In this document: positions 6,203 to 64,000 of the stretch, one piece after another
Position numbering within the stretch: the stretch's first letter is position 1
How the letters are laid out: each line of letters begins with the position of its first letter
Assembly: GCA_030649895.1 (NCBI GenBank)
Contig: JAUSEX010000020.1
Location: 23,109 to 87,108 of the forward strand
Source of the DNA: Candidatus Omnitrophota bacterium
Lineage (GTDB): Bacteria; Omnitrophota; Gorgyraeia; Gorgyraeales; Gorgyraeaceae
Length of the DNA: 64,000 nt
Reading direction: 5' to 3'
Made by a program: the position numbers and the translations under genes
Notes under the pieces: model-generated
The model's input: the letters and a program-made list of their open reading frames with translations, nothing else
Told to the model about the DNA's origin: nothing
Database searches by the model: none

Positions 6203-8461
6203 TTGAGCAAGGATAGAAAAGATCTCATGGTTTCAATAGGTTTGTTTGTCCTGGCGCTGTTACTATTGGCCGGGATGATTTCCTACTCGTCTTACGATAT
6301 CGGTTTCGAGACATCCACCCCTAATATACATATCCGCAATTATATAGGAATAACAGGCGCATATACTGCGTGGGCTATATTCAAGCTGATAGGCTATGCC
6401 GGATTTTTTATCCCGTTTCTCTTTATTGTATGGGGCATAGGGATTCTGGCAGAGAGGCTGACCGGAAAACTATTATACAGAATCCTTGGAATTTTATTTT
6501 TATTTTCAGCCAGTTCTGCGTTTTTCAGCTTGACGGCAAGGCCTGATTCGGTTTTGATGGTTGCAAGAGGCGGGCTTTTAGGGTATGTATTAGCGGACAG
6601 GTTTTTGCTGGATTATCTTGGGGCTATAGGCGGGTACATAGTTACGGTAAGTTTAACAATACTGGCGCTTTTAGTAGCCACAGAATTTCTAATAGTGCCT
6701 GTAATCTCTATTTTATTAATGAAAACATGGGCTATAGCGGATAAGATAGGCAGGCAAAAAAGAGAAAAAGGCGTTACCGGTCATGCAAAAACTGAAAAAT
6801 TTGTCAGTGGCCCGAGATTGAGGCCTGCTGTGAAGGTGGAAAAAGCAGCTCAAGGCTCAAGGCTCAAGGCTCAAGGGGAAGAGATAGAAGACAAAAAAGA
6901 GACCAATTCTAAGGACAGGCCGAGGATAAATATAATGTCGAAGCCTGCGGCTAAACCTAAACCCGCGCCTGCAAAAGCAGTAAAGCTTGAGCCGAGAGTC
7001 GTAGGCGATTATAAGCTTCCAAGCCTTGATTTATTGGACTCTCCCGTATTTAAGCCGGGAAGTATTTTTGGAGAAAATCTGGAAGAAAGCGCGAGAATAC
7101 TTGAAGATACGTTAAGGGATTTTGGAATAGAGTCAAAGGTCATTGATATAAGCAAGGGACCTGTTATCACAAGGTATGAGTTGCAGCCCGCGCCTGGGGT
7201 GAAAGTGAACAGAATCACTAGCCTTAACGATGACATAGCCCTTACCATGAAGGCAACCACCGTGAGGATAGTGGCGCCTATACCCGGAAAATCATGCGTC
7301 GGCATAGAAGTGCCTAACGCGGATACCTCAATGGTTTTCTTGAGGGAAATATTGGAATCCAGCGAGTTTCAGAAGATGGCGGCTTCTTCAAAGCTTGCAA
7401 TGGCTTTAGGAAAAGATATCTCAGGTAAATCTGTCGTAACGGATCTTGGAGACATGCCTCATCTTTTAATAGCGGGCACTACCGGTTCAGGAAAAACTGT
7501 TTGCGTGAATTCCTTGATAATGAGCATGGTCTATAACGCTACGCCTGAAGAATTGAAATTTTTAATGGTTGACCCTAAGATGGTGGAACTTGCTATATAT
7601 AATGGACTGCCGCATTTATTGTGCCCTGTTGTTACTGACGCTAAAAAAGTCGCAGGCGCGCTTGGGTGGGTTGTAGGCGAAATGGAAGCAAGATATAAAA
7701 TGCTGGCCAAGATAGCCGCGAGGAACATAACTTCATTTAATCAAAAATCAGAAGAAAAGCTCCCTTACATAGTTGTCATAATAGACGAATTGGCGGACCT
7801 TATGATGGTTGCCCAGGAAGATATCGAGAACGCTATTACGAGACTAGCCCAACTTTCAAGGGCGGTTGGCATTCATATGATACTCGCTACGCAAAGGCCG
7901 TCAGTGGATGTGGTAACCGGCGTAATAAAGGCGAATTTTCCTGCAAGGATCTCGTTTAAGGTTGCCTCAAAGGTTGATTCCAGGACAGTTCTTGATATGA
8001 ACGGCGCAGATAAGCTGCTGGGAAAAGGCGATATGTTATTCTTGGAACCGGGAAGCCCCAAGCCTGTAAGGGCTCAAGGCACGTATCTTACGGACCCTGA
8101 GATAGAAAAGGTCGTAAATTTTATAAAAGCCCAGCAGGAACCGGTATATGACAATGAGATACTCGAGCACCAGAAAAAAAGCGTTTCAGGAAGAGGCGGT
8201 TTTGAAAAAGATGATTTTTTTGAAGAAGCAGTGCAGATGGTGCTTGAAACAGGCCAGGCGTCTGTTTCAATGCTTCAGAGAAGATTAAGGCTTGGCTATA
8301 CGAGGGCTGCCAGGATAGTGGACGCGATGGAAGAAGAAGGCATAATAGGCCCTTTCAGAGGCTCTAAGCCCAGAGAGATATTGATACAGGAATACCAGCC
8401 AAAAGAAGAAGAGGCTGTTGCTAAAAAAGAAGAAGAAAACCAGGAACAGATATCTAGCTAA
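6203..8461 (+). CDS. ftsK: DNA translocase FtsK. The start could instead be ATG 6227.
   Basis: N-terminal TM helices and a Pro/Lys/Ala-rich linker. FtsK/SpoIIIE ATPase with GTTGSGKTV Walker A, then a C-terminal gamma domain (QASVSMLQRRLRLGYTRAARIVDAMEEEGIIGP). Contains an in-frame GCTCAAG x4 heptamer repeat at 6848-6875. Confidence 0.92.
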   Translation: MSKDRKDLMVSIGLFVLALLLLAGMISYSSYDIGFETSTPNIHIRNYIGITGAYTAWAIFKLIGYAGFFIPFLFIVWGIGILAERLTGKLLYRILGILFLFSASSAFFSLTARPDSVLMVARGGLLGYVLADRFLLDYLGAIGGYIVTVSLTILALLVATEFLIVPVISILLMKTWAIADKIGRQKREKGVTGHAKTEKFVSGPRLRPAVKVEKAAQGSRLKAQGEEIEDKKETNSKDRPRINIMSKPAAKPKPAPAKAVKLEPRVVGDYKLPSLDLLDSPVFKPGSIFGENLEESARILEDTLRDFGIESKVIDISKGPVITRYELQPAPGVKVNRITSLNDDIALTMKATTVRIVAPIPGKSCVGIEVPNADTSMVFLREILESSEFQKMAASSKLAMALGKDISGKSVVTDLGDMPHLLIAGTTGSGKTVCVNSLIMSMVYNATPEELKFLMVDPKMVELAIYNGLPHLLCPVVTDAKKVAGALGWVVGEMEARYKMLAKIAARNITSFNQKSEEKLPYIVVIIDELADLMMVAQEDIENAITRLAQLSRAVGIHMILATQRPSVDVVTGVIKANFPARISFKVASKVDSRTVLDMNGADKLLGKGDMLFLEPGSPKPVRAQGTYLTDPEIEKVVNFIKAQQEPVYDNEILEHQKKSVSGRGGFEKDDFFEEAVQMVLETGQASVSMLQRRLRLGYTRAARIVDAMEEEGIIGPFRGSKPREILIQEYQPKEEEAVAKKEEENQEQISS
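6848..6875. repeat. Perfect heptanucleotide tandem repeat (GCTCAAG)x4 inside ftsK
   Basis: Read directly. Encodes AQGSRLKAQG in the FtsK linker. Confidence 0.9.
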
Positions 8462-10601: not shown

Positions 10602-11151
10602 ACTTACGATTTCCAGGATAATCCTGGCGGCTTTTTTTATATTATTTTTGTTTATAAAAGGCCCTGGAGCCAAGTGCATGGCAATGGCTATTTTTCTGGC
10701 AGCCTGCATAACGGATTATTACGACGGTTATTTTGCCAGGAAGACAGGCAGTGTTACAGCTTTCGGCAAATTAATGGACCCCATAGCGGATAAGATACTT
10801 ATTTTAGGGGCGTTTCTGGCTTTTGTGGAACTGGAGATAGTGCCGGCATGGATGGCTATGATAATCATAGCCAGGGAGCTGGTTATTACAGGGATAAGGA
10901 TACTGGCGCTTTCGCAGAAAAAAGTCCTTGCTGCGGAAACCGGAGGGAAACATAAGACGGTTTCACAGATGGTGGCAGTTATCTCTATATTGGTATTTTT
11001 GATAATAAGGGATATGGGGTTCGGTTTCAGGCATATGGAAGCCTTTGGGACAGCGGTATATTTACTCATGCTTATAACAGTGGGCATGACTCTGACATCG
11101 GGCGTTTCTTATATGCTTAGAAACAAAGACATCTTTATGGGGGATCAATGA
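10585..11151 (+). CDS. pgsA: CDP-diacylglycerol--glycerol-3-phosphate 3-phosphatidyltransferase
   Basis: CDP-alcohol phosphatidyltransferase motif DYYDGYFARKTGSVTAFGKLMDPIADK. Polytopic membrane protein. Confidence 0.8.
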   Translation: MNLANKLTISRIILAAFFILFLFIKGPGAKCMAMAIFLAACITDYYDGYFARKTGSVTAFGKLMDPIADKILILGAFLAFVELEIVPAWMAMIIIARELVITGIRILALSQKKVLAAETGGKHKTVSQMVAVISILVFLIIRDMGFGFRHMEAFGTAVYLLMLITVGMTLTSGVSYMLRNKDIFMGDQ

Positions 11152-11609
11152 GAGACCGTATATATAAAATGATAGCAAGCATTTTTTATATAGGCTATCT
11201 GCCTGTTGCGCCTGGCACGCTTGGGAGCCTTGCCGCGCTTATCCCGTATTATTTTATAAATCATAATCCTGTCATAAACGGGATAGTCATATTGATAATT
11301 ATATTTCTTGGTTTCCTAACATGCGGTAGAGTAGAGAAGATATTCAAAGAAAAAGATCCCGAAGAAATAATCATAGATGAATTCGCAGGCATGTTAATAA
11401 GCTTATATCGTTTGCCTCCCACTATGGGTTATATAGTGGCGGGATTTTTATTGTTCAGATTTTTTGATATAGTAAAACCAAGGCCTCTGAAAAATCTTGA
11501 AAAATTAAAAGGCGGCGTGGGCATAATGTCTGACGATATAGTAGCCGGCGTATATGCAAATATAATACTGCAGCTTGTTTATATGGCGAGCTTATTGTGC
11601 TGGCGTTAA
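11148..11609 (+). CDS. pgpA: Phosphatidylglycerophosphatase A
   Basis: YIGYLPVAPGTLGSLAAL is the PgpA signature. Coupled to pgsA by a 4-nt overlap. Confidence 0.8.
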   Translation: MRDRIYKMIASIFYIGYLPVAPGTLGSLAALIPYYFINHNPVINGIVILIIIFLGFLTCGRVEKIFKEKDPEEIIIDEFAGMLISLYRLPPTMGYIVAGFLLFRFFDIVKPRPLKNLEKLKGGVGIMSDDIVAGVYANIILQLVYMASLLCWR

Positions 11610-11657
11610 TTGTAAACGGGCTGTTGGCTGCGCTGCATGATACAGGAGATCTATAGT

Positions 11658-12206
11658 TTACAGCTTGGAATAGATAGCGCCTTTTGGAGTGAGGGTGCTT
11701 TGGAAAAGAGCGAGTTCATTAACTATAGCGCCTGTTTCAATGGAAAAAGGAATTTCTTTTAATAGTTTTACGAGATTATGTATGTTTCTGGGTGCGCGGA
11801 TCCTGCCTAAAGTAAGATGAGCTGTAAATTCCCTTGATTTCTTTGCGAATCCAAGTTTTTCCATAGCTGTTTCTATTTTTTCTGCCAATATTTTCAAAGA
11901 AGAGGCCTCTTTGTTTATCCCTATCCATATGACGCGGGGATGGTCAATGTTTGGAAACGCGCCTATCCCTGAAAATCCGATCGTAAAAGGTTTTAGGGCG
12001 CTTGATATGACCGATAATGCATCTGAAATCTTTTTAATATCGTCCTCTGCGATATTCCCCAGAAATTTTAGCGTAAGATGCATCTGATCTTCAGTTATCC
12101 ATTTGACATCAGCGCTGGATTGTTTAAGGCAGGAAATAAGCTTGGATATTTTTTGCTTGACCTGAGGATCGATTTCAACCGCTATAAAGGCGCGTATAGA
12201 TGACAT
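11658..12206 (-). CDS. thpR: RNA 2',3'-cyclic phosphodiesterase (2H family, LigT/ThpR)
   Basis: Two H-x-T-x motifs (HLTLKFLG and HLTLGRI), about 180 aa. Confidence 0.8.
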   Translation of the reverse strand: MSSIRAFIAVEIDPQVKQKISKLISCLKQSSADVKWITEDQMHLTLKFLGNIAEDDIKKISDALSVISSALKPFTIGFSGIGAFPNIDHPRVIWIGINKEASSLKILAEKIETAMEKLGFAKKSREFTAHLTLGRIRAPRNIHNLVKLLKEIPFSIETGAIVNELALFQSTLTPKGAIYSKL

Positions 12207-23063: not shown

Positions 23064-23404
23064 AGAGCTTAGGGTTTAAGGTTGAAGGCTTAAAGTTTGA
23101 CAAGGACGGATTGATCCCTGCGATAGTGCAGGAATATGAGACCGGAGAGGTCTTGATGCTGGCGTATATGAATAAGGATTCCCTGAAGAAGACATTAAGG
23201 CTTAAAAAGACATGTTTCTGGTCAAGGTCCAGGCAAAAATTCTGGATAAAAGGAGAAACCTCTGGAAATTTTCAGGTTGTTAAGGCGGTTTATTATGATT
23301 GCGACATGGATACCCTGCTTATCAAAGTAAGGCAGATGGGAGATTGTGTCGCGTGTCATACGGGAAACAAGAGTTGTTTCTACCGTAAAATAAAAACTGC
23401 ATAG
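23060..23404 (+). CDS. hisI: Phosphoribosyl-AMP cyclohydrolase
   Basis: 114-aa protein with GLIPAIVQ...[17 protein letters not shown]...CDMDTLL...CH is HisI-like. Overlaps hisF by 4 nt. Confidence 0.85.
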
Positions 23405-59103: not shown

Positions 59104-59110
59104 AGAAATA

Positions 59111-59170
59111 GGTTCTTCAGCAGCTAAAATGCTAGTTATTGTCCGCATTTCTTAACGCTGCCTCAGGATC
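59111..59170 (+). repeat. tRNA-leader repeat, copy C, upstream of tRNA-Tyr
   Basis: GGTTCTTCAGCAGCTAAAATGCTAGTTATTGTCCGCATTTCTTAACGCTGCCTCAGGATC. A TAAAAT hexamer lies immediately before the tRNA 5' end. Confidence 0.7.
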
Positions 59171-59190: not shown

Positions 59191-59276
<86 letters not shown>

Positions 59277-59386
59277 CTGTTGTTTTAAATATTTGTGGGA
59301 CATATAAAGGATTCGAAGAGAGTCCTGATAGATGCGACTAACAGGAGCATCTGTTTATCAGGACGAGTGGCCGACCCGAAGCGAAG

Positions 59387-59407
59387 CGGAGGGCGCCGAA
59401 TCCTTCT
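59387..59407 (+). repeat. Direct repeat of the last 21 nt of tRNA-Tyr (GAATCCTTCTCTGCCCACCA plus the preceding GCGCC), an att-like duplication
   Basis: Exact match to 59256-59276, lying 110 bp downstream of the intact tRNA. Confidence 0.7.
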
Positions 59408-59487
59408 CTGCCCACCAAATCCGCTGAAAGCGGATTTGATCTTGAGATTGCGACTGAATAAGGAGCAATCGAAAGACCTTATAAATA

Positions 59488-59732
59488 TGGATTTTTGGCA
59501 TGTCTATATCATAGAATGTAAAGATAAGAAATTTTATGTAGGCATAGCCAAAGATTTAGATAATCGCATTAAATTACATAGCAAAGGGCTGGCTTGTAGG
59601 TTTACAAAATATAGGAAGTTTATTAGATTAGTTTATAAAGAAACTTATAATACCAAGTCAGAAGCAAGAAAAAGAGAATTAGAAATAAAAGGGTATAAGA
59701 GAGAGAAAAAGTTAGAGTTGGCAGGTGGATAG
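59488..59732 (+). CDS. GIY-YIG nuclease superfamily protein (COG2827 / UPF0213-like small endonuclease)
   Basis: 81-aa protein: WHVYIIECKDKKFYVGIAKDLDNRIKLHSKG...EARKRELEIKGYKREKK matches the GIY-YIG fold motifs (YIYxL..G..YVG..D...R...H) and conserved Arg/Glu. The longer track ORF (59295) runs through the tRNA-fragment repeat and is probably not translated. Confidence 0.8.
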
Positions 59733-59790
59733 GTTCTTCGGCAGCTAAAATGCTTGCTTTGCTCGCATTTTTTACGCTGTCTCAGAATCA
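59732..59790 (+). repeat. tRNA-leader repeat, copy D, followed by a pseudo-tRNA fragment instead of an intact tRNA
   Basis: GGTTCTTCGGCAGCTAAAATGCTTGCTTTGCTCGCATTTTTTACGCTGTCTCAGAATC begins at the stop codon of the GIY-YIG gene. Confidence 0.7.
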
Positions 59791-59805: not shown

Positions 59806-59860
59806 GCTGGCGTAGCTCAACGGTAGAGCAATGGTTTTGTAATGTGATTTGAGCATTTTT
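59806..59860 (+). pseudogene. Degenerate tRNA 5'-half fragment (acceptor plus D-arm) similar to the tRNA(CAU) at 52164
   Basis: GCTGGCGTAGCTCAACGGTAGAGCA aligns with GGCGGCGTAGCTCAGCCTGGCAGAGCA of the upstream tRNA. No anticodon or T arms can be folded. Confidence 0.4.
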
Positions 59861-60227
59861 CATAACTCCTTGAAATTATTGTAACTACATTATATTGCAA
59901 TAAGTTAGAATGGGTTAAGAGCAGGCTTGAGCAGGCCCGAAAAGGCTGGTTATGGGCTGTGCATGGACAGCATTTGGACAGCAGAGTTATATTGAGTGTG
60001 TGGTGTGTTTTAAATGAGAAGAATACGATTCCCCTTGACGCTCAGAGGGAAGTCAGGTAAACTAAGCTATAATGAGTGGACATCATTCTTGCGATAGTAG
60101 GGGCAGCTATTAAAAAATATGGCTGTTATTTTTTTCTCTAAAATTGGGCAATTTTGTGGTATACTTATAGTAGGGGATAGCCGGGGGTTATACCCTAATA
60201 TTTGTCTATAAAAAGGAGGTGATAGAT

Positions 60228-60620
60228 ATGTTTAGAAAAATTTTAGGAATCAAGAAAGGTTTTTCTGGAGGTAAAAAAGTTTCTTCTCAAGTGGAATCCC
60301 TTTTAACCTGCTTAGAATATAAAGACGATGATTATTGTATAGCTCATTGTTTAGAGTTTGATATAGTTGCACAGGGAAAGACATTTGAGCAGGCTAATGA
60401 ATCTTTGGCAGAATTAATTAAAGAGCAGATAACTTTTGCTGTTGAGAAAGATTTAGAGGAGACGGTTTTATTTCATCCTGCTCCATCTAAATATTGGGAT
60501 ATAGTTCGCAACTTAAAAACAAAAATGGCTAGAAAAGAATTATTGAGCAGACCTAATATTACTACAGAGCAAATTTTAGATAGAACAGAATGCATTTCTG
60601 CCCATGCATACTCAAGATAA
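60228..60620 (+). CDS. hicB: HicB-family antitoxin (UPF0150 / RNase-H-like fold)
   Basis: YCIAHCLEFDIVAQGKTFEQANESLAELIKEQITF matches the HicB N-terminal domain. ATG 60228 sits 6 nt after AGGAGGTG; the track uses GTG 60219. Overlaps the downstream hicA by 17 nt. Confidence 0.65.
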   Translation: MFRKILGIKKGFSGGKKVSSQVESLLTCLEYKDDDYCIAHCLEFDIVAQGKTFEQANESLAELIKEQITFAVEKDLEETVLFHPAPSKYWDIVRNLKTKMARKELLSRPNITTEQILDRTECISAHAYSR

Positions 60621-60843
60621 GCCCCTCCCGTATCGTGAGATTCTCTCAAAGTTAAGAGAATTTGGCGTCCAAGAGATTAAAAGAAAAGGTGTTAAAATAA
60701 TATTATTTCATCCTAACGTTAATGGAAAGCCAGCTTCTTATCCTATGGATATTCATAAAGAGAGTCAGGTATTCAGTAGACCTGTTGTAAGGGCCATTAG
60801 AAATAGGTTCAATATTCCATTGGAGCAGTTTTATTCAAGATAG
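60604..60843 (+). CDS. hicA: HicA-family mRNA interferase toxin (YcfA-like)
   Basis: 79-aa protein: ILSKLREFGVQEIKRKGVKIILFHPNVNGKPASYPMDIHKESQVFSRPVVRAIRNRFNI fits the HicA dsRBD-like pattern (G.H..F.HP.....T.P.H....L...T...I..Q). Coupled to hicB. Confidence 0.6.
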   Translation: MHTQDKPLPYREILSKLREFGVQEIKRKGVKIILFHPNVNGKPASYPMDIHKESQVFSRPVVRAIRNRFNIPLEQFYSR

Positions 60844-60999
60844 ACATCGCAAGCCATAGCCATTCCTTCCGACTGAAAGCCAGCCAATAAAATAAGTCCT
60901 TGTGTTCATAAGAGAGAATTGATATAATTTTAGTATGAGCTTCCAGACATCTCAATTTAAATTGTGGCGGAAACGCTACGGAAAGACCCTTGTGCTTTG

Positions 61000-61029
61000 A
61001 GTCTGGATCTCGCACGGGGGTTTTTTATT
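61000..61029 (+). terminator. Candidate intrinsic terminator: GC stem followed by a T6 run
   Basis: CCCTTGTGC...GCACGGGGG TTTTTT ATT lies downstream of hicA. The stem is imperfect. Confidence 0.35.
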
Positions 61030-61039
61030 CAGAATAGGT

Positions 61040-61960
61040 TTCAGAAACTAATAGTGATATACCTTCCGACTGCGCACAGTCGGCCGAATGAGAAGATAGC
61101 TCGTCTACGGCTCGCAAGCCGTAGTTTACATAACGAAAGTTATGTAAAAGAGCTAAGCCAGTAATCACCGACCGTTATAGAGGTAATAAAGCTAAAGGGC
61201 ATACAGGCATTAAGCACGAACCCGCCTACATAGTAGACGGGACACAGTCATCACGCCGCGCGTGATGTCTGTGGGTGATTAAAGGTAAATAGTGGCATAT
61301 TCTTGAGGCAAACCACAAGAATGTGCCTCTATTTACCGCTGCCTGTATGCGTTCCTTAAATTCTTTATTACCTCTGTAACGGGAACCGACTATAGTGGAC
61401 ACTATAGGCGGTTAGGTGATGTATGGCGGTTCTTCGAATGGGCTTGTGATGTTGATGTGTTGAAGAGTTTCTATGCGTATTAACGTATGCCAGGGACACT
61501 GAGACGCTTGGAATATCGAAGACAAACGGATACACAATGGCGATGATAGTTTTTAGTAGTCGCAGCGAACCTGAACAATCGAAGCGTTCGCATTGGACAC
61601 ATTGATGGATTTGACATATCGCAGCGAACCTAAATAGTCGAAGATGTTGCCTAAGACGGCGGGCAGTTTAATTTGTTGAAGCGTTCGCATTGGACGCATG
61701 TTGGAGTTGAATATCACGCGAAACGTACTCACATAGAGTGTGGCTCGGATGAAGATGTAGCGCAGCGAAGCGCGCCTCCGAAGGACGACTCGCCGAATAG
61801 GCGAGACGGCGCGCGGAGCGGAGCGGGTCAACGCTGAAGATGTAGCGACACGACGAATAGGAGTGTCGCGGGCATAGGAAAGGAGAAGCTCGTTCTCGCG
61901 AGAAGCGAGAACGAGCGGACGACTGGCAGTTTAATTTGAAGTAATGAGCGCGAAGCGGCC
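61040..61960 (+). other. GC-rich, hairpin-dense noncoding block: three perfect tetraloop hairpins, a roughly 220-nt nested inverted repeat, then degenerate tandem hairpin repeats
   Basis: Hairpins CCGACTG-CGCA-CAGTCGG (61066-61083), CTACGGCT-CGCA-AGCCGTAG (61105-61124), TACATAAC-GAAA-GTTATGTA (61128-61147). Outer IR 61165-61208 pairs with 61329-61384. Repeated modules CGCAGCGAACCT..TCGAAG / GAAGCGTTCGCATTGGAC occur twice, and GGCAGTTTAATTTG twice. 12-bp perfect hairpin GCTCGTTCTCGC-GAGAA-GCGAGAACGAGC at 61888-61916. Confidence 0.6.
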
Positions 61961-62219
61961 GTAAAGTTTCATTGATTTTTCTTTCTTTTTAAGAACAATT
62001 TTTTAGTTTAACTTTAACACAATAAAACCGTGAAAAAAATAGAACTTTCAAGATTAAACATAGGTATGGTTCCAGCTCATACTCGGGGCAAAAACAATTT
62101 TGGGGGGAGAAAAAACAATGAATAGTTACTTGGTAACCTTGATACAAGCGAAGTAAAAAGTTTTGTTAGATGTCCAGAGAAAATAGCCTTTCATGAATAT
62201 ATAAGAGTAAGGAGCATAA

Positions 62220-62744: not shown

Positions 62745-63467
62745 ATGCGAGAATCTAATAAATGTGTTATTTGTTTAAAGAATTTTAATAATTCTATTAA
62801 AGATGATTCCAAGACAGAGGAACACGTTTTTCCAAAATCATGGTATCCTGAAAGTACGCCCAATGACCTTGAAAAGTGGAAAGTTCCTTCATGCAGAAAA
62901 TGCAATAATGACTATAGCCTCTACGAGCAAAATTTATTAATTAGATTAGGTCTAGGTCTTTTTAAAAAAAATGAAAAATGTTCTGGAATAATAGAAAAAG
63001 CAAGGAGATCGATTGACCCAACATACGCAAAAAATGAGAGAGATAGGCAAAAAAGGTTAAAATGTAGAGAAGAAGTAATAAGAGATTTAAGTAGCTCAGA
63101 TAAGATATCTTCAAAAGGTATCTTGCCAAATTTTGGTGCTGATGAAAAAATCAAATATAAAGAATATCCTATTTTACTAATCAGAGCCGATTATTTAAAA
63201 AAGTTCGCCATTAAAATTGTCAGAGGGATGACATTCCTTTTTGATGGATTTTTGATAGAAGATGATTACGAGATCAATCATTTCTTTATAAAGGATGAAG
63301 AGCAAAAGCCTTTCATGGAAATTATAGATAAATTTGGAAGTACCGAACATAGAGGTCCTGGGATTGTTGTGGGACGAGCAGTAGTATTTGATGATCATAA
63401 ATCTTCTTTTTATAGAATTGATATTTGGGGGAAATTAAAAATTTTCGCAACTGTTAGAAGAAGGTGA
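62745..63467 (+). CDS. HNH-endonuclease-domain protein with about 180-aa uncharacterised C-terminal domain
   Basis: N-terminal CVIC..(22)..EEHVFPKS..(10)..NDL..(9)..CRKCNN fits the HNH pattern: CxxC, catalytic H, structural N, CxxC-N. The C-terminal region has no recognisable motif. Confidence 0.6.
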   Translation: MRESNKCVICLKNFNNSIKDDSKTEEHVFPKSWYPESTPNDLEKWKVPSCRKCNNDYSLYEQNLLIRLGLGLFKKNEKCSGIIEKARRSIDPTYAKNERDRQKRLKCREEVIRDLSSSDKISSKGILPNFGADEKIKYKEYPILLIRADYLKKFAIKIVRGMTFLFDGFLIEDDYEINHFFIKDEEQKPFMEIIDKFGSTEHRGPGIVVGRAVVFDDHKSSFYRIDIWGKLKIFATVRRR

Positions 63468-63523
63468 ATGATTTAAAATACTCTAATAAAGCGCTCATCT
63501 TTGTGTTAGACAGAAATAAAGAA

Positions 63524-64000
63524 TGATGATAAATATTACAATTACAGATATCAATGCTGTTTTAGGTATTTTATTTGGTCTCTCGGGTTTAACCCTTGCT
63601 ATTATAAATTATCATCGTGATAATCCGAAGATAGTTGTAGATTTGAGCTGGGATATGAGGATGATTGAAGTTGGTGGAGGGCCACAAAATACGGATAAGT
63701 TGCATGGTGTGATAACTGTAACAAATATTGGAAGAAGACCCATCTATATTAGTCACGTATCGTTAAAACTACCCTCAAAAGGTTATCTTCTCTTAATAGA
63801 AGGGGTATCAGGGCAGAAGCTTACTGAAGGAGATACACCAAGGACATTTACGGTTAGCCATGATCAAATAATTCAAAAAATTGGTGGGCGTTTACAAAAA
63901 CAACCGAATATGTGGAGACTAATAAGAGCTCAAGTTAGTGACTCAGCAGGTAAAGTATATTTATCAAAGAAAATAAAGAATTGCCCTGATTGGGCTAAAA
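63524..64000 (+). CDS. Single-pass membrane protein of unknown function, 3'-truncated by the window
   Basis: ATG 63524. One N-terminal TM helix (AVLGILFGLSGLTLAII) then a soluble beta-rich domain. The frame is open to the window end, so it is absent from the ORF track. Confidence 0.4.

Follow-up and report, generated by a model that had tools for sequence, protein, structure and literature searches.

What is the GC-rich block of about 0.9 kb, packed with hairpins and lacking any convincing gene, that lies between protein-coding genes in a genome of Candidatus Omnitrophota? The DNA analysed, hereafter the window, is a stretch of 64,000 nucleotides (positions 23,109 to 87,108 of contig JAUSEX010000020.1, assembly GCA_030649895.1), and all coordinates are window positions. 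The block appears to be a previously undescribed noncoding RNA of about 0.8-0.9 kb, inferred from sequence alone, with a predicted fold that is preserved by compensating mutations, carried on a mobile defence island. Bacterial RNAs of this size without a known function are rare.

The block is noncoding, GC-enriched and predicted to be highly folded

The initial annotation of the block as a dense array of perfect hairpins, a nested inverted repeat and recurring hairpin modules is confirmed, as every feature it listed is present in the sequence. The nested inverted repeat pairs 61172-61191 with 61363-61382 (20 nt, 95%) and 61199-61209 with 61340-61350 (11 nt, 100%), enclosing 61284-61308 with 61313-61337 (25 nt, 88%), 61243-61273 and 61384-61413. 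Among the recurring modules, TCGCAGCGAACCT, GAAGCGTTCGCATTGGAC, TGAAGATGTAGCG and GGCAGTTTAATTTG each occur twice, as do CGAATAGG loops. Two corrections are required: the element starts at about 61060 rather than 61040, and the “tandem hairpin modules” are two copies of a unit whose copy number varies from 0 to 3 among homologues. GC content is 0.44-0.585 inside the block, compared with 0.32-0.385 in the flanks.

The minimum free energy (MFE) of the block (61060-61970) is -376 kcal/mol, against -279 +/- 7.7 for dinucleotide shuffles (z = -12.6, 0 of 20 shuffles as good), and homologues give z = -13.5 and -9.2. The initial annotation regarded the only open reading frame, of 92 amino acids on the minus strand, as a GC artefact, and this is correct: the frame is not kept in homologues, and the alignment contains indels that are not multiples of three.

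Table 1. Features of the block and of the adjoining part of the island. L034, L039, L040, L041 and L046 are loci carrying homologues of the block.
Position	Strand	Feature	Supporting observations
59806-59842	+	5' half of tRNA-Thr(UGU), cut right after the anticodon loop; left junction of the island (59842/59843)	97% identical to the 5' part of intact tRNA-Thr(tgt) genes of related Omnitrophota; ARAGORN finds no tRNA here; L046 has a CAU-anticodon tRNA half cut at the same position
59846-59980	+	Conserved noncoding left arm with two GAGCAGGC repeats that look like arm-type recombinase sites	82% identical over 136 nt to L046 7901-8035, which also follows a truncated tRNA
60219-60843	+	HicB-like and HicA-like toxin-antitoxin pair; variable cargo between left arm and block	Weak Pfam hits only (HicA_toxin E = 0.05, UPF0150 E = 0.02); L046 has a NYN-domain gene in this position instead
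60981-61027	+	Intrinsic terminator ending the hicBA unit, immediately before the block	15-bp GC-rich stem followed by U6 (T6 run at 61021-61026); local fold z = -3.7
61066-61083	+	Hairpin H1 (CCGACTG-CGCA-CAGTCGG), first conserved element, preceded by conserved CCTTCC	Stem changes but stays paired: CCGACUG/CAGUCGG in the window, CCGCC/GGCGG in L034, CCGCAC/GUGCGG in L046
61097-61155	+	Three-way junction: closing stem 61097-61102 with 61150-61155; H2 at 61105-61124 (CTACGGCT-CGCA-AGCCGTAG); H3 at 61125-61148 (TTTACATAAC-GAAA-GTTATGTAAA)	MFE and local fold; closing stem AGCUC/GAGCU becomes AGCGGC/GCCGCU in L034 and L046; one H2 pair changes from G-C to A-U; L034 and L046 have a 65-nt structured insertion in the H2 loop
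61157-61427	+	Large closed multibranch domain: outer helices 61157-61160 with 61424-61427, 61164-61169 with 61415-61420, 61172-61191 with 61363-61382, 61199-61211 with 61338-61350; inner hairpins 61221-61241, 61243-61273, 61284-61337, 61384-61413	RNAalifold on the window, L034 and L046; pairs changed on both sides: 8 in the 20-bp helix, 6 in the 23-bp hairpin, 4 in 61384-61413
61447-61518	+	Hairpin domain ending the 5' scaffold (61471-61488 with 61496-61511)	14 pairs, 97.6% paired, several conserved G.U pairs
61560-61618	+	Expansion module “a” (59 nt): TCGCAGCGAAC...TCGAAGCGTTCGCATTGGAC...GGATTTGA	Present in the window, L041 and L040; absent in L034 and L046
61619-61715	+	Expansion module “c” (97 nt): same ends as module “a”, with an inserted hairpin and GGCAGUUUAAUUUG	Present in the window, L034, L041 and L039; L040 has an a/c hybrid and L046 has none, so copy number varies by recombination between modules
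61716-61881	+	Nearly invariant, purine- and GC-rich 3' core: GGAUGAAGAUGUAGCG, a UCC-GAA-GGA triloop hairpin, the hairpin CUCGCC-GAAUA-GGCGAG, GGAGCGGAGCGGG and a second GAAUAG-loop hairpin	Most columns identical in all 6-7 sequences
61882-61970	+	Variable 3' tail: perfect 12-bp hairpin at 61888-61916, second GGCAGUUUAAUUUG at 61926-61939, and GAAGUAAUGAGCGCGAAGCGGCCG; U-rich tract follows at 61976-61990	Tail resembles that of L039; replaced by the leader of the HTH_17 gene in L034, L041 and L046
61553-61831	-	92-aa Arg-rich ORF, not a gene	No Pfam hit; homologues split it over two frames; only one similar “protein” among 5.8 billion, itself a call on a 574-bp contig that carries the same RNA

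Homologues and database searches

Homologues were identified by a motif scan of metagenome contigs (with one 18-mer), through neighbouring genes, and by using translated spurious ORFs as protein queries, which gave one extra copy, whereas a concatenated six-frame pseudo-protein gave nothing. They comprise six sequence variants, 76-92% identical, on at least 11 metagenomic contigs, and the two with an informative record are Candidatus Omnitrophota. A covariance model built from the 3' core scores 182-240 bits on every family member and nothing else in about 400 kb of retrieved loci. The block is single copy in the window and is not repeated in other Omnitrophota loci. Relatives found by synteny through the NnrD protein show the normal locus (tRNA-Tyr, -Gly, -Thr, -Thr, tufA), and none of them carries the block.

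The initial annotation had recognised no core of RNase P, tmRNA, SRP or 6S. No Rfam 15 family, including these, GOLLD, ROOL, OLE, HEARO, raiA and group I and II introns, matches the block: at gathering thresholds only two tRNAs are found in the whole window and nothing in four homologous loci, and at E <= 10 with permissive filters the window, L034 and L046 copies give only unrelated, non-recurring hits of 13-24 bits to miRNA, snoRNA and sRNA models. Blastn against phages and plasmids gave no match. Scans of viral contigs with three internal motifs, a 21-mer of the island left arm and the HTH_17 protein returned only chance hits in a tape-measure gene (three loci) and five HTH_17 loci without the block. 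An exact look-up of the HNH-like protein encoded downstream in the window, which might have extended the locus past the window end, found no record.

Base pairing in the predicted fold is maintained by compensatory change

In the 5' domain, 156 pairs are predicted, 97.3% of cells are paired, and 29 pairs are changed on both sides, against 11 +/- 2.6 in shuffles (0 of 500 as high) and 2-5 in slid controls. In the 3' core, 51 pairs are predicted, 93.4% are paired, and 9 are changed on both sides, against 2.6 +/- 1.3 in shuffles. However, only a few closely related sequences are known, from one or a few lineages, and the covariation therefore rests on few independent events. The structure used for the counts was also predicted on these same sequences and on the + strand, which inflates both the paired fraction and the G.U : A.C ratio given below. 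The alignment at the extreme 5' end (61097-61160) is imperfect, and RNAalifold chose an alternative there that we consider wrong.

G.U pairs greatly outnumber A.C mismatches in conserved helices (35:3 in the 5' domain and 26:3 in the core), pointing to the + strand, and we count single transitions in helices as about 15 G.U against 3 A.C. The + strand MFE is 26-49 kcal/mol lower than that of the minus strand in all three copies folded. Shuffle z-scores, on the other hand, do not separate the strands, as the minus strand scores -10.7, -11.3 and -11.8 and both strands fall between -9 and -13.

Overall, the element consists of a covarying 5' scaffold of about 460 nt, 0-3 dispensable modules of 58-98 nt that vary by recombination, a nearly invariant, purine-rich core of about 170 nt, and a variable tail. 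With more than 500 nt, several multistem junctions, covariation-supported helices and conserved nucleotides, it has the characteristics of large ornate ncRNAs as a general kind, though not of any particular family; its transcription is inferred.

Genomic context

The block lies about 1.2 kb inside an island inserted just after the anticodon loop of a tRNA gene, tRNA-Thr in the window and a CAU tRNA in L046, and its distance from the left end is the same in these two islands. The left arm and the block are the only sequences shared between the two islands, which have different cargo, suggesting that both are part of the island backbone. In five of six variants the block sits just upstream of the promoter of a 57-aa HTH_17 gene, in the same orientation, which leads variable anti-phage cargo. 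The window copy lacks this neighbour and is followed by unrelated genes, a DUF3192 lipoprotein and an HNH-like protein, and so the context is not uniform.

The HTH_17 gene has its own promoter, scoring 10-11 of 12 with an extended -10 in two loci of the other upstream type (“type B”). We read the same hexamers in block-carrying loci (TTGTAT-17-TATGAT), although the promoter scan did not flag them in L041. HTH_17 loci in other lineages keep this promoter and leader without the block. At the 5' edge of the block, no convincing conserved promoter was found.

Interpretation

The interpretation of the initial annotation, which offered a large ornate ncRNA, a phage or plasmid-type origin with iterons, or an attP/oriT-like site, is partly supported. 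A large structured RNA is strongly supported, and the suggestion of a kind found near tRNAs and in mobile DNA is correct. An origin with iterons is weakened, as the modules are absent from the otherwise intact homologue in L046. An attP site is unlikely, since the island's junction lies about 1.2 kb upstream with its own conserved arm. A role for the folded + strand as single-stranded DNA (oriT or single-strand origin) or as a primer RNA is not excluded.

With moderate confidence, we interpret the + strand of about 61060-61970 as encoding a member of a previously undescribed family of large (about 0.72-0.95 kb), highly structured noncoding RNAs, a backbone component of an Omnitrophota island carrying toxin-antitoxin and anti-phage cargo. 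The analysis shows that the sequence is conserved and noncoding, that its multibranch fold, including helices spanning 180-330 nt, is maintained by compensatory substitutions, and that there are three functional zones: a 5' region conserving structure but not sequence, the recombination-prone modules, and a 3' core conserving sequence almost perfectly. It is by inference only that we regard the block as transcribed as its own unit, given its position between the hicBA terminator and a U-rich tract in the window and upstream of the HTH_17 promoter elsewhere, the core as the working part (a binding or active site for a conserved protein or nucleic acid partner), and the 5' domain as a scaffold. 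The RNA probably acts as a stable trans-acting scaffold (RNP or RNA-only assembly) serving the island, in the manner of GOLLD, ROOL and OLE RNAs, an antisense or guide-RNA role being less likely. Complementarity to the HTH_17 5' region was not better than shuffles in two of three loci, in an RNAduplex test that is uninformative on long inputs.

Among alternatives, it is unlikely but possible that the folded + strand works as single-stranded DNA, or that the region is a cis-acting DNA site: an origin of transfer, a single-strand origin or priming site used after excision, a replication origin, or the preferred insertion or recombination site for the HTH_17-led cassettes. The block is island backbone at the exact border where variable cassettes begin, it has long near-perfect inverted repeats and repeated modules, and the type B region, which occupies the same position in other loci, forms long terminal inverted repeats around the cassette. 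Helices of 20-25 near-perfect base pairs are unusual for stable bacterial RNAs, being RNase III substrates, and are common in DNA-level elements; the block is also rich in C(GAA)G- and GCA-type triloops, which are very stable in single-stranded DNA, as reportedly found by Hirao and colleagues for d(GCGAAGC). The absence of a detected promoter is consistent with this view, and as G.T wobbles are tolerated in ssDNA hairpins, the strand bias does not rule it out. However, about 800 nt with 14 or more helices, some of them covarying and closing 180-330-nt multibranch domains, is far larger than known oriT, single-strand-origin or att sites. The modules are dispensable, since L046 has none, and so do not look like essential iterons, the att junction is elsewhere, no inverted copy of the block was found within 10 kb in L046 or L040, and no relaxase, Rep or integrase gene is seen in the available flanks.

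Still less likely is a cis-acting RNA tied to its downstream neighbour, such as a long structured leader, a transcriptional insulator or terminator platform, a processing platform controlling the HTH_17-led operon, or a ColE1 RNA II-like primer. The position and orientation relative to HTH_17 are compatible with this, L034 has a terminator-like hairpin between the block and the HTH_17 promoter, and the purine-rich, G-rich 3' end (GC skew +0.23 to +0.29) would favour an R-loop, but the gene's own promoter, the many HTH_17 loci lacking the block and the unrelated neighbours in the window speak against it, as does the complementarity result. The least likely reading is selfish or decaying palindromic DNA without a function of its own (stacked MITE-like hairpin repeats or the remnant of a terminal repeat), with arm complementarity kept by repair or template switching. 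The narrow distribution, the similarity of the copies, the varying modules and the mosaic surroundings, which contain other repeats, would fit. In contrast, the core is almost invariant while flanking cargo is completely replaced, compensatory changes occur in helices whose arms are 170-330 nt apart with other hairpins in between, G.U is strongly favoured over A.C, and the block is not repeated.

Comparison with known systems

GOLLD (RF01998) and ROOL (RF03087) are very large (about 800 and 581 nt), multi-junction bacterial ncRNAs of unknown function, often found near tRNA genes and in prophages or mobile DNA (PMC5737381), that form RNA-only assemblies (PMC12286853). The present RNA is likewise multibranch, lies on a tRNA-inserted island and has a more conserved 3' part, but matches neither covariance model even at E <= 10, occurs in a different phylum and in a defence island rather than a prophage, has no copies in the viral contigs scanned, and carries variable internal modules and unusually long perfect helices. 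OLE RNA (RF01071) is an ornate RNA of ~600 nt with stretches of highly conserved nucleotides that acts as an RNP scaffold (PMC9723947, PMC12054373). The block does not match its model, and while OLE is chromosomal in Bacillota and flanked by the partner genes oapA and oapB, no conserved partner gene is adjacent here apart from the frequent but separable HTH_17. ColE1-type RNA II is a structured transcript of several hundred nt on a mobile replicon, acting in cis with no Rep protein needed and with a G-rich 3' part. The block has no antisense RNA I-like unit, no origin signature and no evidence of autonomous replication.

Type III toxin-antitoxin (ToxI) and CRISPR or TIGR-like arrays also have tandem RNA units of variable copy number in a defence context, but the units here are few, embedded in a much larger fold, and have interiors that are conserved between homologues rather than locus-specific. 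No ToxN, AbiQ, Cas or Tas gene follows, the downstream genes being those for DUF3192 and an HNH-like protein in the window and HTH_17 elsewhere. IS110/IS1111 bridge (seek) RNAs and other guide RNAs are likewise structured ncRNAs of mobile elements inserting at a defined target; the block is four to five times larger and is not next to a recombinase gene. The longest words shared with or complementary to the tRNA-Thr and tRNA(CAU) junctions are 7-8 nt, equal to the shuffle mean, in a weak test using ungapped exact words only. A group II intron or HYER-like ribozyme is not supported, as there is no Intron_gpII or group-II-D1D4 hit at E <= 10 and no GUGYG at the element start. Nor is a retron or DRT-type ncRNA, as no reverse transcriptase-like ORF or Pfam hit occurs in the flanks of the window, L034, L040 or L046, the right-hand part of the island lying beyond the window.

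Significance

Very few bacterial noncoding RNAs longer than 500 nt with complex, conserved folds are known, and only rRNAs, GOLLD and group II introns are noted to exceed ROOL in size and complexity (PMC5737381). Each such RNA has proved, or is expected, to have unusual biochemistry. A new RNA of 0.72-0.95 kb would extend this short list, as it comes from an uncultivated phylum, sits on a mobile defence island, and has a clear split between scaffold and invariant core, offering a compact, well-delimited target for study. It also draws attention to an unusual island family that interrupts tRNA genes after the anticodon loop, and to a 57-aa HTH_17 gene, conserved across phyla, that leads interchangeable defence cassettes. 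More tentatively, this may be a new class of ornate RNA with a biochemical role of its own, for example an RNA-only assembly, an RNP core or a ribozyme centred on the purine-rich 3' core. It would then be a required backbone component of a so far undescribed family of Omnitrophota islands, linking a giant structured RNA to island maintenance, mobility or anti-phage defence.

The folded block and its coding potential

All of the features listed in the initial annotation are present in the sequence, and so its observation holds: the block is real and far beyond chance. A T6 run closes a strong intrinsic terminator, and is followed by three perfect hairpins, a nested inverted repeat that encloses three more hairpins, and, further downstream, recurring motifs together with a perfect 12-bp hairpin. 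The GC content is 0.44-0.585 inside the block, compared with 0.32-0.385 in the flanks. As RNA, the + strand folds to -376 kcal/mol, while dinucleotide shuffles give -279 +/- 7.7 (z = -12.6). Coordinates of these and other features are collected in the table below.

The block is noncoding and matches no known family. Its longest open reading frame (ORF), of 92 aa on the minus strand, has no Pfam hit, the corresponding ORFs of homologues fall in different frames, and the alignment contains 1- and 2-nt indels. Searches with the Rfam 15 models found only two tRNAs in the window at the gathering threshold, and at E <= 10 with permissive filters three diverged copies of the block gave only unrelated, non-recurring weak hits. 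No phage or plasmid record matched in the searches made.

Coordinates of the block and of associated features (window unless another locus is named)
Feature	Coordinates	Strand
Last 20 nt of tRNA-Tyr and its exact repeat	59257-59276 and 59398-59417	
77-nt piece with two hairpins	59308-59384	
GIY-YIG domain ORF, with the duplicate of the sequence preceding tRNA-Tyr	59478-59732, with 59110-59170 and 59733-59790	
End of homology to tRNA-Thr(UGU), after the anticodon loop	59842	
Truncated tRNA and island arm	59806-59980; L046 7860-8035	
Arm shared with L046	59846-59980	
Intrinsic terminator	60981-61027	
T6 run closing the terminator	61021-61026	
Three perfect hairpins	61066-61083, 61105-61124 and 61125-61148	
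5' scaffold	61066-61518	
Nested inverted repeat, 20-bp helix	61172-61191 with 61363-61382	
Nested inverted repeat, second pairing	61199-61209 with 61340-61350	
92-aa ORF	61553-61831	-
3' core	61716-61881	
Invariant motif GAUGAAGAUGUAGCG	61746-61761 and 61835-61847	
Perfect 12-bp hairpin	61888-61916	
240-aa protein with weak N-terminal HNH_5 match	62745-63467	
Uncharacterised ORF running off the window end	63523-64000	
HTH_17 gene (homologues P0002-P0121)	L025 542-715	
Type B region	L053 1-540; L065 94-246 vs 6226-6341; L068 627-1073 vs 11024-11736	
Leader element of HTH_17	L034 2723-2790 and equivalent in L050-L067	
Transposase-like gene	L040 13-1509	

The tRNA locus and its disruption

The NAD(P)H-hydrate dehydratase encoded upstream is 78-83% identical to proteins of Candidatus Omnitrophota MAGs. 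In those relatives tRNA-Tyr is followed by tRNA-Gly(UCC), tRNA-Thr(UGU), tRNA-Thr(GGU) and tufA, whereas in the window homology to tRNA-Thr(UGU) stops after the anticodon loop and foreign DNA follows. None of the relatives carries the block.

In the window the last 20 nt of tRNA-Tyr are repeated exactly 141 nt downstream, the intervening sequence is 92-93% conserved in other Omnitrophota (loci L018 and L005), and a 77-nt piece with two hairpins recurs after tRNA-Thr genes in L018 and in two further loci, L009 and L008. This has no Rfam hit, and looks like a small tRNA-linked repeat or the remnant of an integration. An ORF with a GIY-YIG domain (Pfam E = 5e-15) is flanked by a duplicate of the sequence that precedes tRNA-Tyr, and the tRNA-Gly(UCC) gene present in relatives is missing here, suggesting a homing-endonuclease-type insertion or rearrangement in the tRNA cluster.

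Identification of homologues

The 18-mer GAAGCGTTCGCATTGGAC occurs twice inside the block, and we reasoned that it had survived divergence of the internal repeats and was therefore constrained. A scan of metagenome contigs with this 18-mer gave 18 loci, of which two were true homologues as checked by BLAST, namely L034, which is full length, and L025. Use of the spurious minus-strand ORFs as a protein query added a further locus, L039. In L025 and L034 the block is followed by a gene for a 57-aa HTH_17 (excisionase-family) protein, and retrieval of contigs encoding that protein gave the loci L040-L047, all of which carry the block directly upstream of the gene. In L040 a 498-aa transposase-like gene with a weak HTH_32 hit is inserted between the block and HTH_17, and the sequence of the block ends abruptly at ...CCGGCAGTAAAATT. 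Altogether there are six sequence variants, from at least 11 contigs: the window (identical to locus L004), L034, L046 (identical to L047), the L041 group, L040 and L039. Pairwise identity is 76-84% in the 5' part and 84-92% in the 3' part.

Conservation of the predicted structure

RNAalifold on the three full-length copies predicts 156 pairs in the 5' domain, and on that alignment 97.3% of cells are paired. Of these pairs, 29 have a change on both sides, compared with 11.0 +/- 2.6 in column shuffles (0 of 500 as high) and 2-5 when the partners are shifted by 1-3 columns. Covariation is concentrated in the long helices: the 20-bp helix of the nested inverted repeat has 8 such pairs, and its arms are 171 nt apart with four hairpins between them. 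At the extreme 5' end MAFFT misplaced one arm, because L034 and L046 carry a 65-nt insertion. When the alignment is read by eye, the first hairpin (H1), the stem of the three-way junction (AGCUC/GAGCU becoming AGCGGC/GCCGCU) and the second hairpin (H2, G-C becoming A-U) also covary, and we therefore prefer the local fold of the single sequence in this part. The 3' core is almost invariant in six sequences, but still shows 9 pairs changed on both sides, against 2.6 +/- 1.3 in shuffles. One example is CUCGCC-GAAUA-GGCGAG, which becomes CUCGUC/GACGAG and CCCGCC/GGCGGG.

In the conserved helices G.U cells outnumber A.C cells 35:3 in the 5' domain and 26:3 in the core, and a count of single transitions in helices, made from the table of pair changes, gave G.U about 15 times and A.C 3 times. 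The minimum free energy of the + strand is lower by 49, 26 and 46 kcal/mol in the three copies. However, the structure was itself predicted on the + strand, and shuffle z-scores are equally extreme for both strands. We take the + strand as the folded one, meaning an RNA transcribed left to right or, less likely, the + strand as single-stranded DNA.

Architecture of the block

The block can be divided into four parts. In the 5' scaffold structure is conserved while sequence drifts. This is followed by an expansion segment built of units that all start with TCGCAGCGA(A) and end with GCATTGGAC-N8-GGATTTGA, and that fall into the module types a (59 nt), b (58 nt) and c (98 nt). The window has a and c, L034 has b and c, L041 has a, b and c, L040 has an a/c hybrid, and L046 has none. 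The modules therefore vary by recombination between repeats and are dispensable, which argues against essential iterons. The 3' core, of about 170 nt, is nearly invariant and is rich in GA and in C(GAA)G triloop hairpins, with CGAA the most enriched 4-mer. Its invariant motif GAUGAAGAUGUAGCG contains a start-Lys-Met-stop mini-ORF (AUG AAG AUG UAG) that is conserved in all copies, although this is probably coincidence. The 3' tail is variable. In the window and L039 it ends near a U-rich tract, while in L034, L041 and L046 it is replaced by the leader of the HTH_17 gene.

Genomic context

L046 comes from an 89.5-kb Omnitrophota contig, which carries in order dnaG, rpoD, a gene for a 227-aa protein, and the 5' half of a CAU-anticodon tRNA cut after the anticodon loop. 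Next come 136 nt that are 82% identical to positions 59846-59980 of the window, then a NYN-domain gene, the block, and HTH_17 with its cargo of an AAA_15 ATPase, a methyltransferase, a ResIII helicase and a TIR protein. The same island family thus sits in two different tRNA genes, Thr-UGU and a CAU tRNA, at the same sublocation, and in both the block lies about 1.2 kb inside the left end. The shared 136-nt arm has two GAGCAGGC repeats, while the genes between this arm and the block differ, being hicBA in the window and the NYN gene in L046. An orphan 5' half at this junction is unusual, because most tRNA-targeting integrases duplicate the 3' part of the gene.

The HTH_17 protein is 82-100% identical across at least four phyla (Omnitrophota, Thermodesulfovibrionia, Nitrospinae and Elusimicrobiota), and is always the first gene of highly variable defence cargo, including type I, III and IIL restriction-modification, PLD-SNF2, TIR, DarT-Macro, GmrSD, RadC and KAP NTPase. 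Many contigs break just upstream of it. The gene has its own predicted promoter of sigma-70 type, scored in two loci that lack the block; the same hexamers can be read in block-carrying loci, although the scan did not flag them in L041. Between the upstream region and this promoter is a conserved leader element that reads CCCACC..CAGCAGUCACAG..GGCGGCUUCAGCCC-UUCG-GGCU... and includes a terminator-like hairpin. The element is duplicated in locus L062 and has no Rfam hit. Loci outside the family share only the leader and promoter. The block is therefore not the 5' UTR of HTH_17, and the two are separable. In the window the block is instead followed by genes for a DUF3192 lipoprotein and for an HNH-like protein of 240 aa (HNH_5, E = 0.0015); the latter and the ORF that runs off the window end are possible further island cargo.

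In loci without the block, a different GC-rich region, which we call type B, lies upstream of HTH_17. It folds better on the minus strand, with z = -7.2 against -3.6. In two loci it forms long inverted repeats (up to about 450 nt, 93-100%) that bracket the whole HTH_17 cassette, as if the cassette were a mobile or invertible unit bounded by terminal inverted repeats. L039 carries the block fused to the inner part of this region.

Possible modes of action

The initial annotation proposed a large structured RNA or a replication or recombination site, an interpretation that is partly supported, the RNA being the reading we prefer. A guide or bridge-RNA role is not supported, as no complementarity to the two island junctions was found in a weak test with ungapped exact words only, and neither is antisense control of HTH_17, for which complementarity was no better than in shuffles in two of three loci. 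A cis-acting DNA or single-stranded DNA site (an oriT, single-strand origin, origin or cassette target) seems unlikely, but is kept alive by the absence of a recognisable promoter in the searches made, the long perfect helices, the triloops of a type favoured in DNA, and the position of the block at the cassette border. More doubtful still is a cis-acting RNA for the downstream operon, or a primer RNA, and we consider functionless palindromic DNA the least likely of these.

The closest known RNAs are GOLLD and ROOL, which are large, multi-junction, near tRNAs, on mobile DNA and of unknown function (PMC5737381, PMC12286853), and OLE is also close. Membership in any of these families was tested with their covariance models and is not supported. 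Large RNAs of this general sort are already known, and what is new is the family. The case for it is weakened by narrow sampling and by the lack of expression data, while its strengths are the size of the element, the clear covariation from only three to six sequences, and a sharply defined invariant core.

We consider it shown by the analysis that the block is a conserved, noncoding, single-strand-folded element with a scaffold, a dispensable expansion and an invariant core, and that it is part of the backbone of a mobile island. That it is separately transcribed as a stable RNA, and that its invariant core binds a conserved partner or forms an active site, is inferred. In this view it would most likely act as a scaffold RNA, in the manner of OLE, GOLLD and ROOL.
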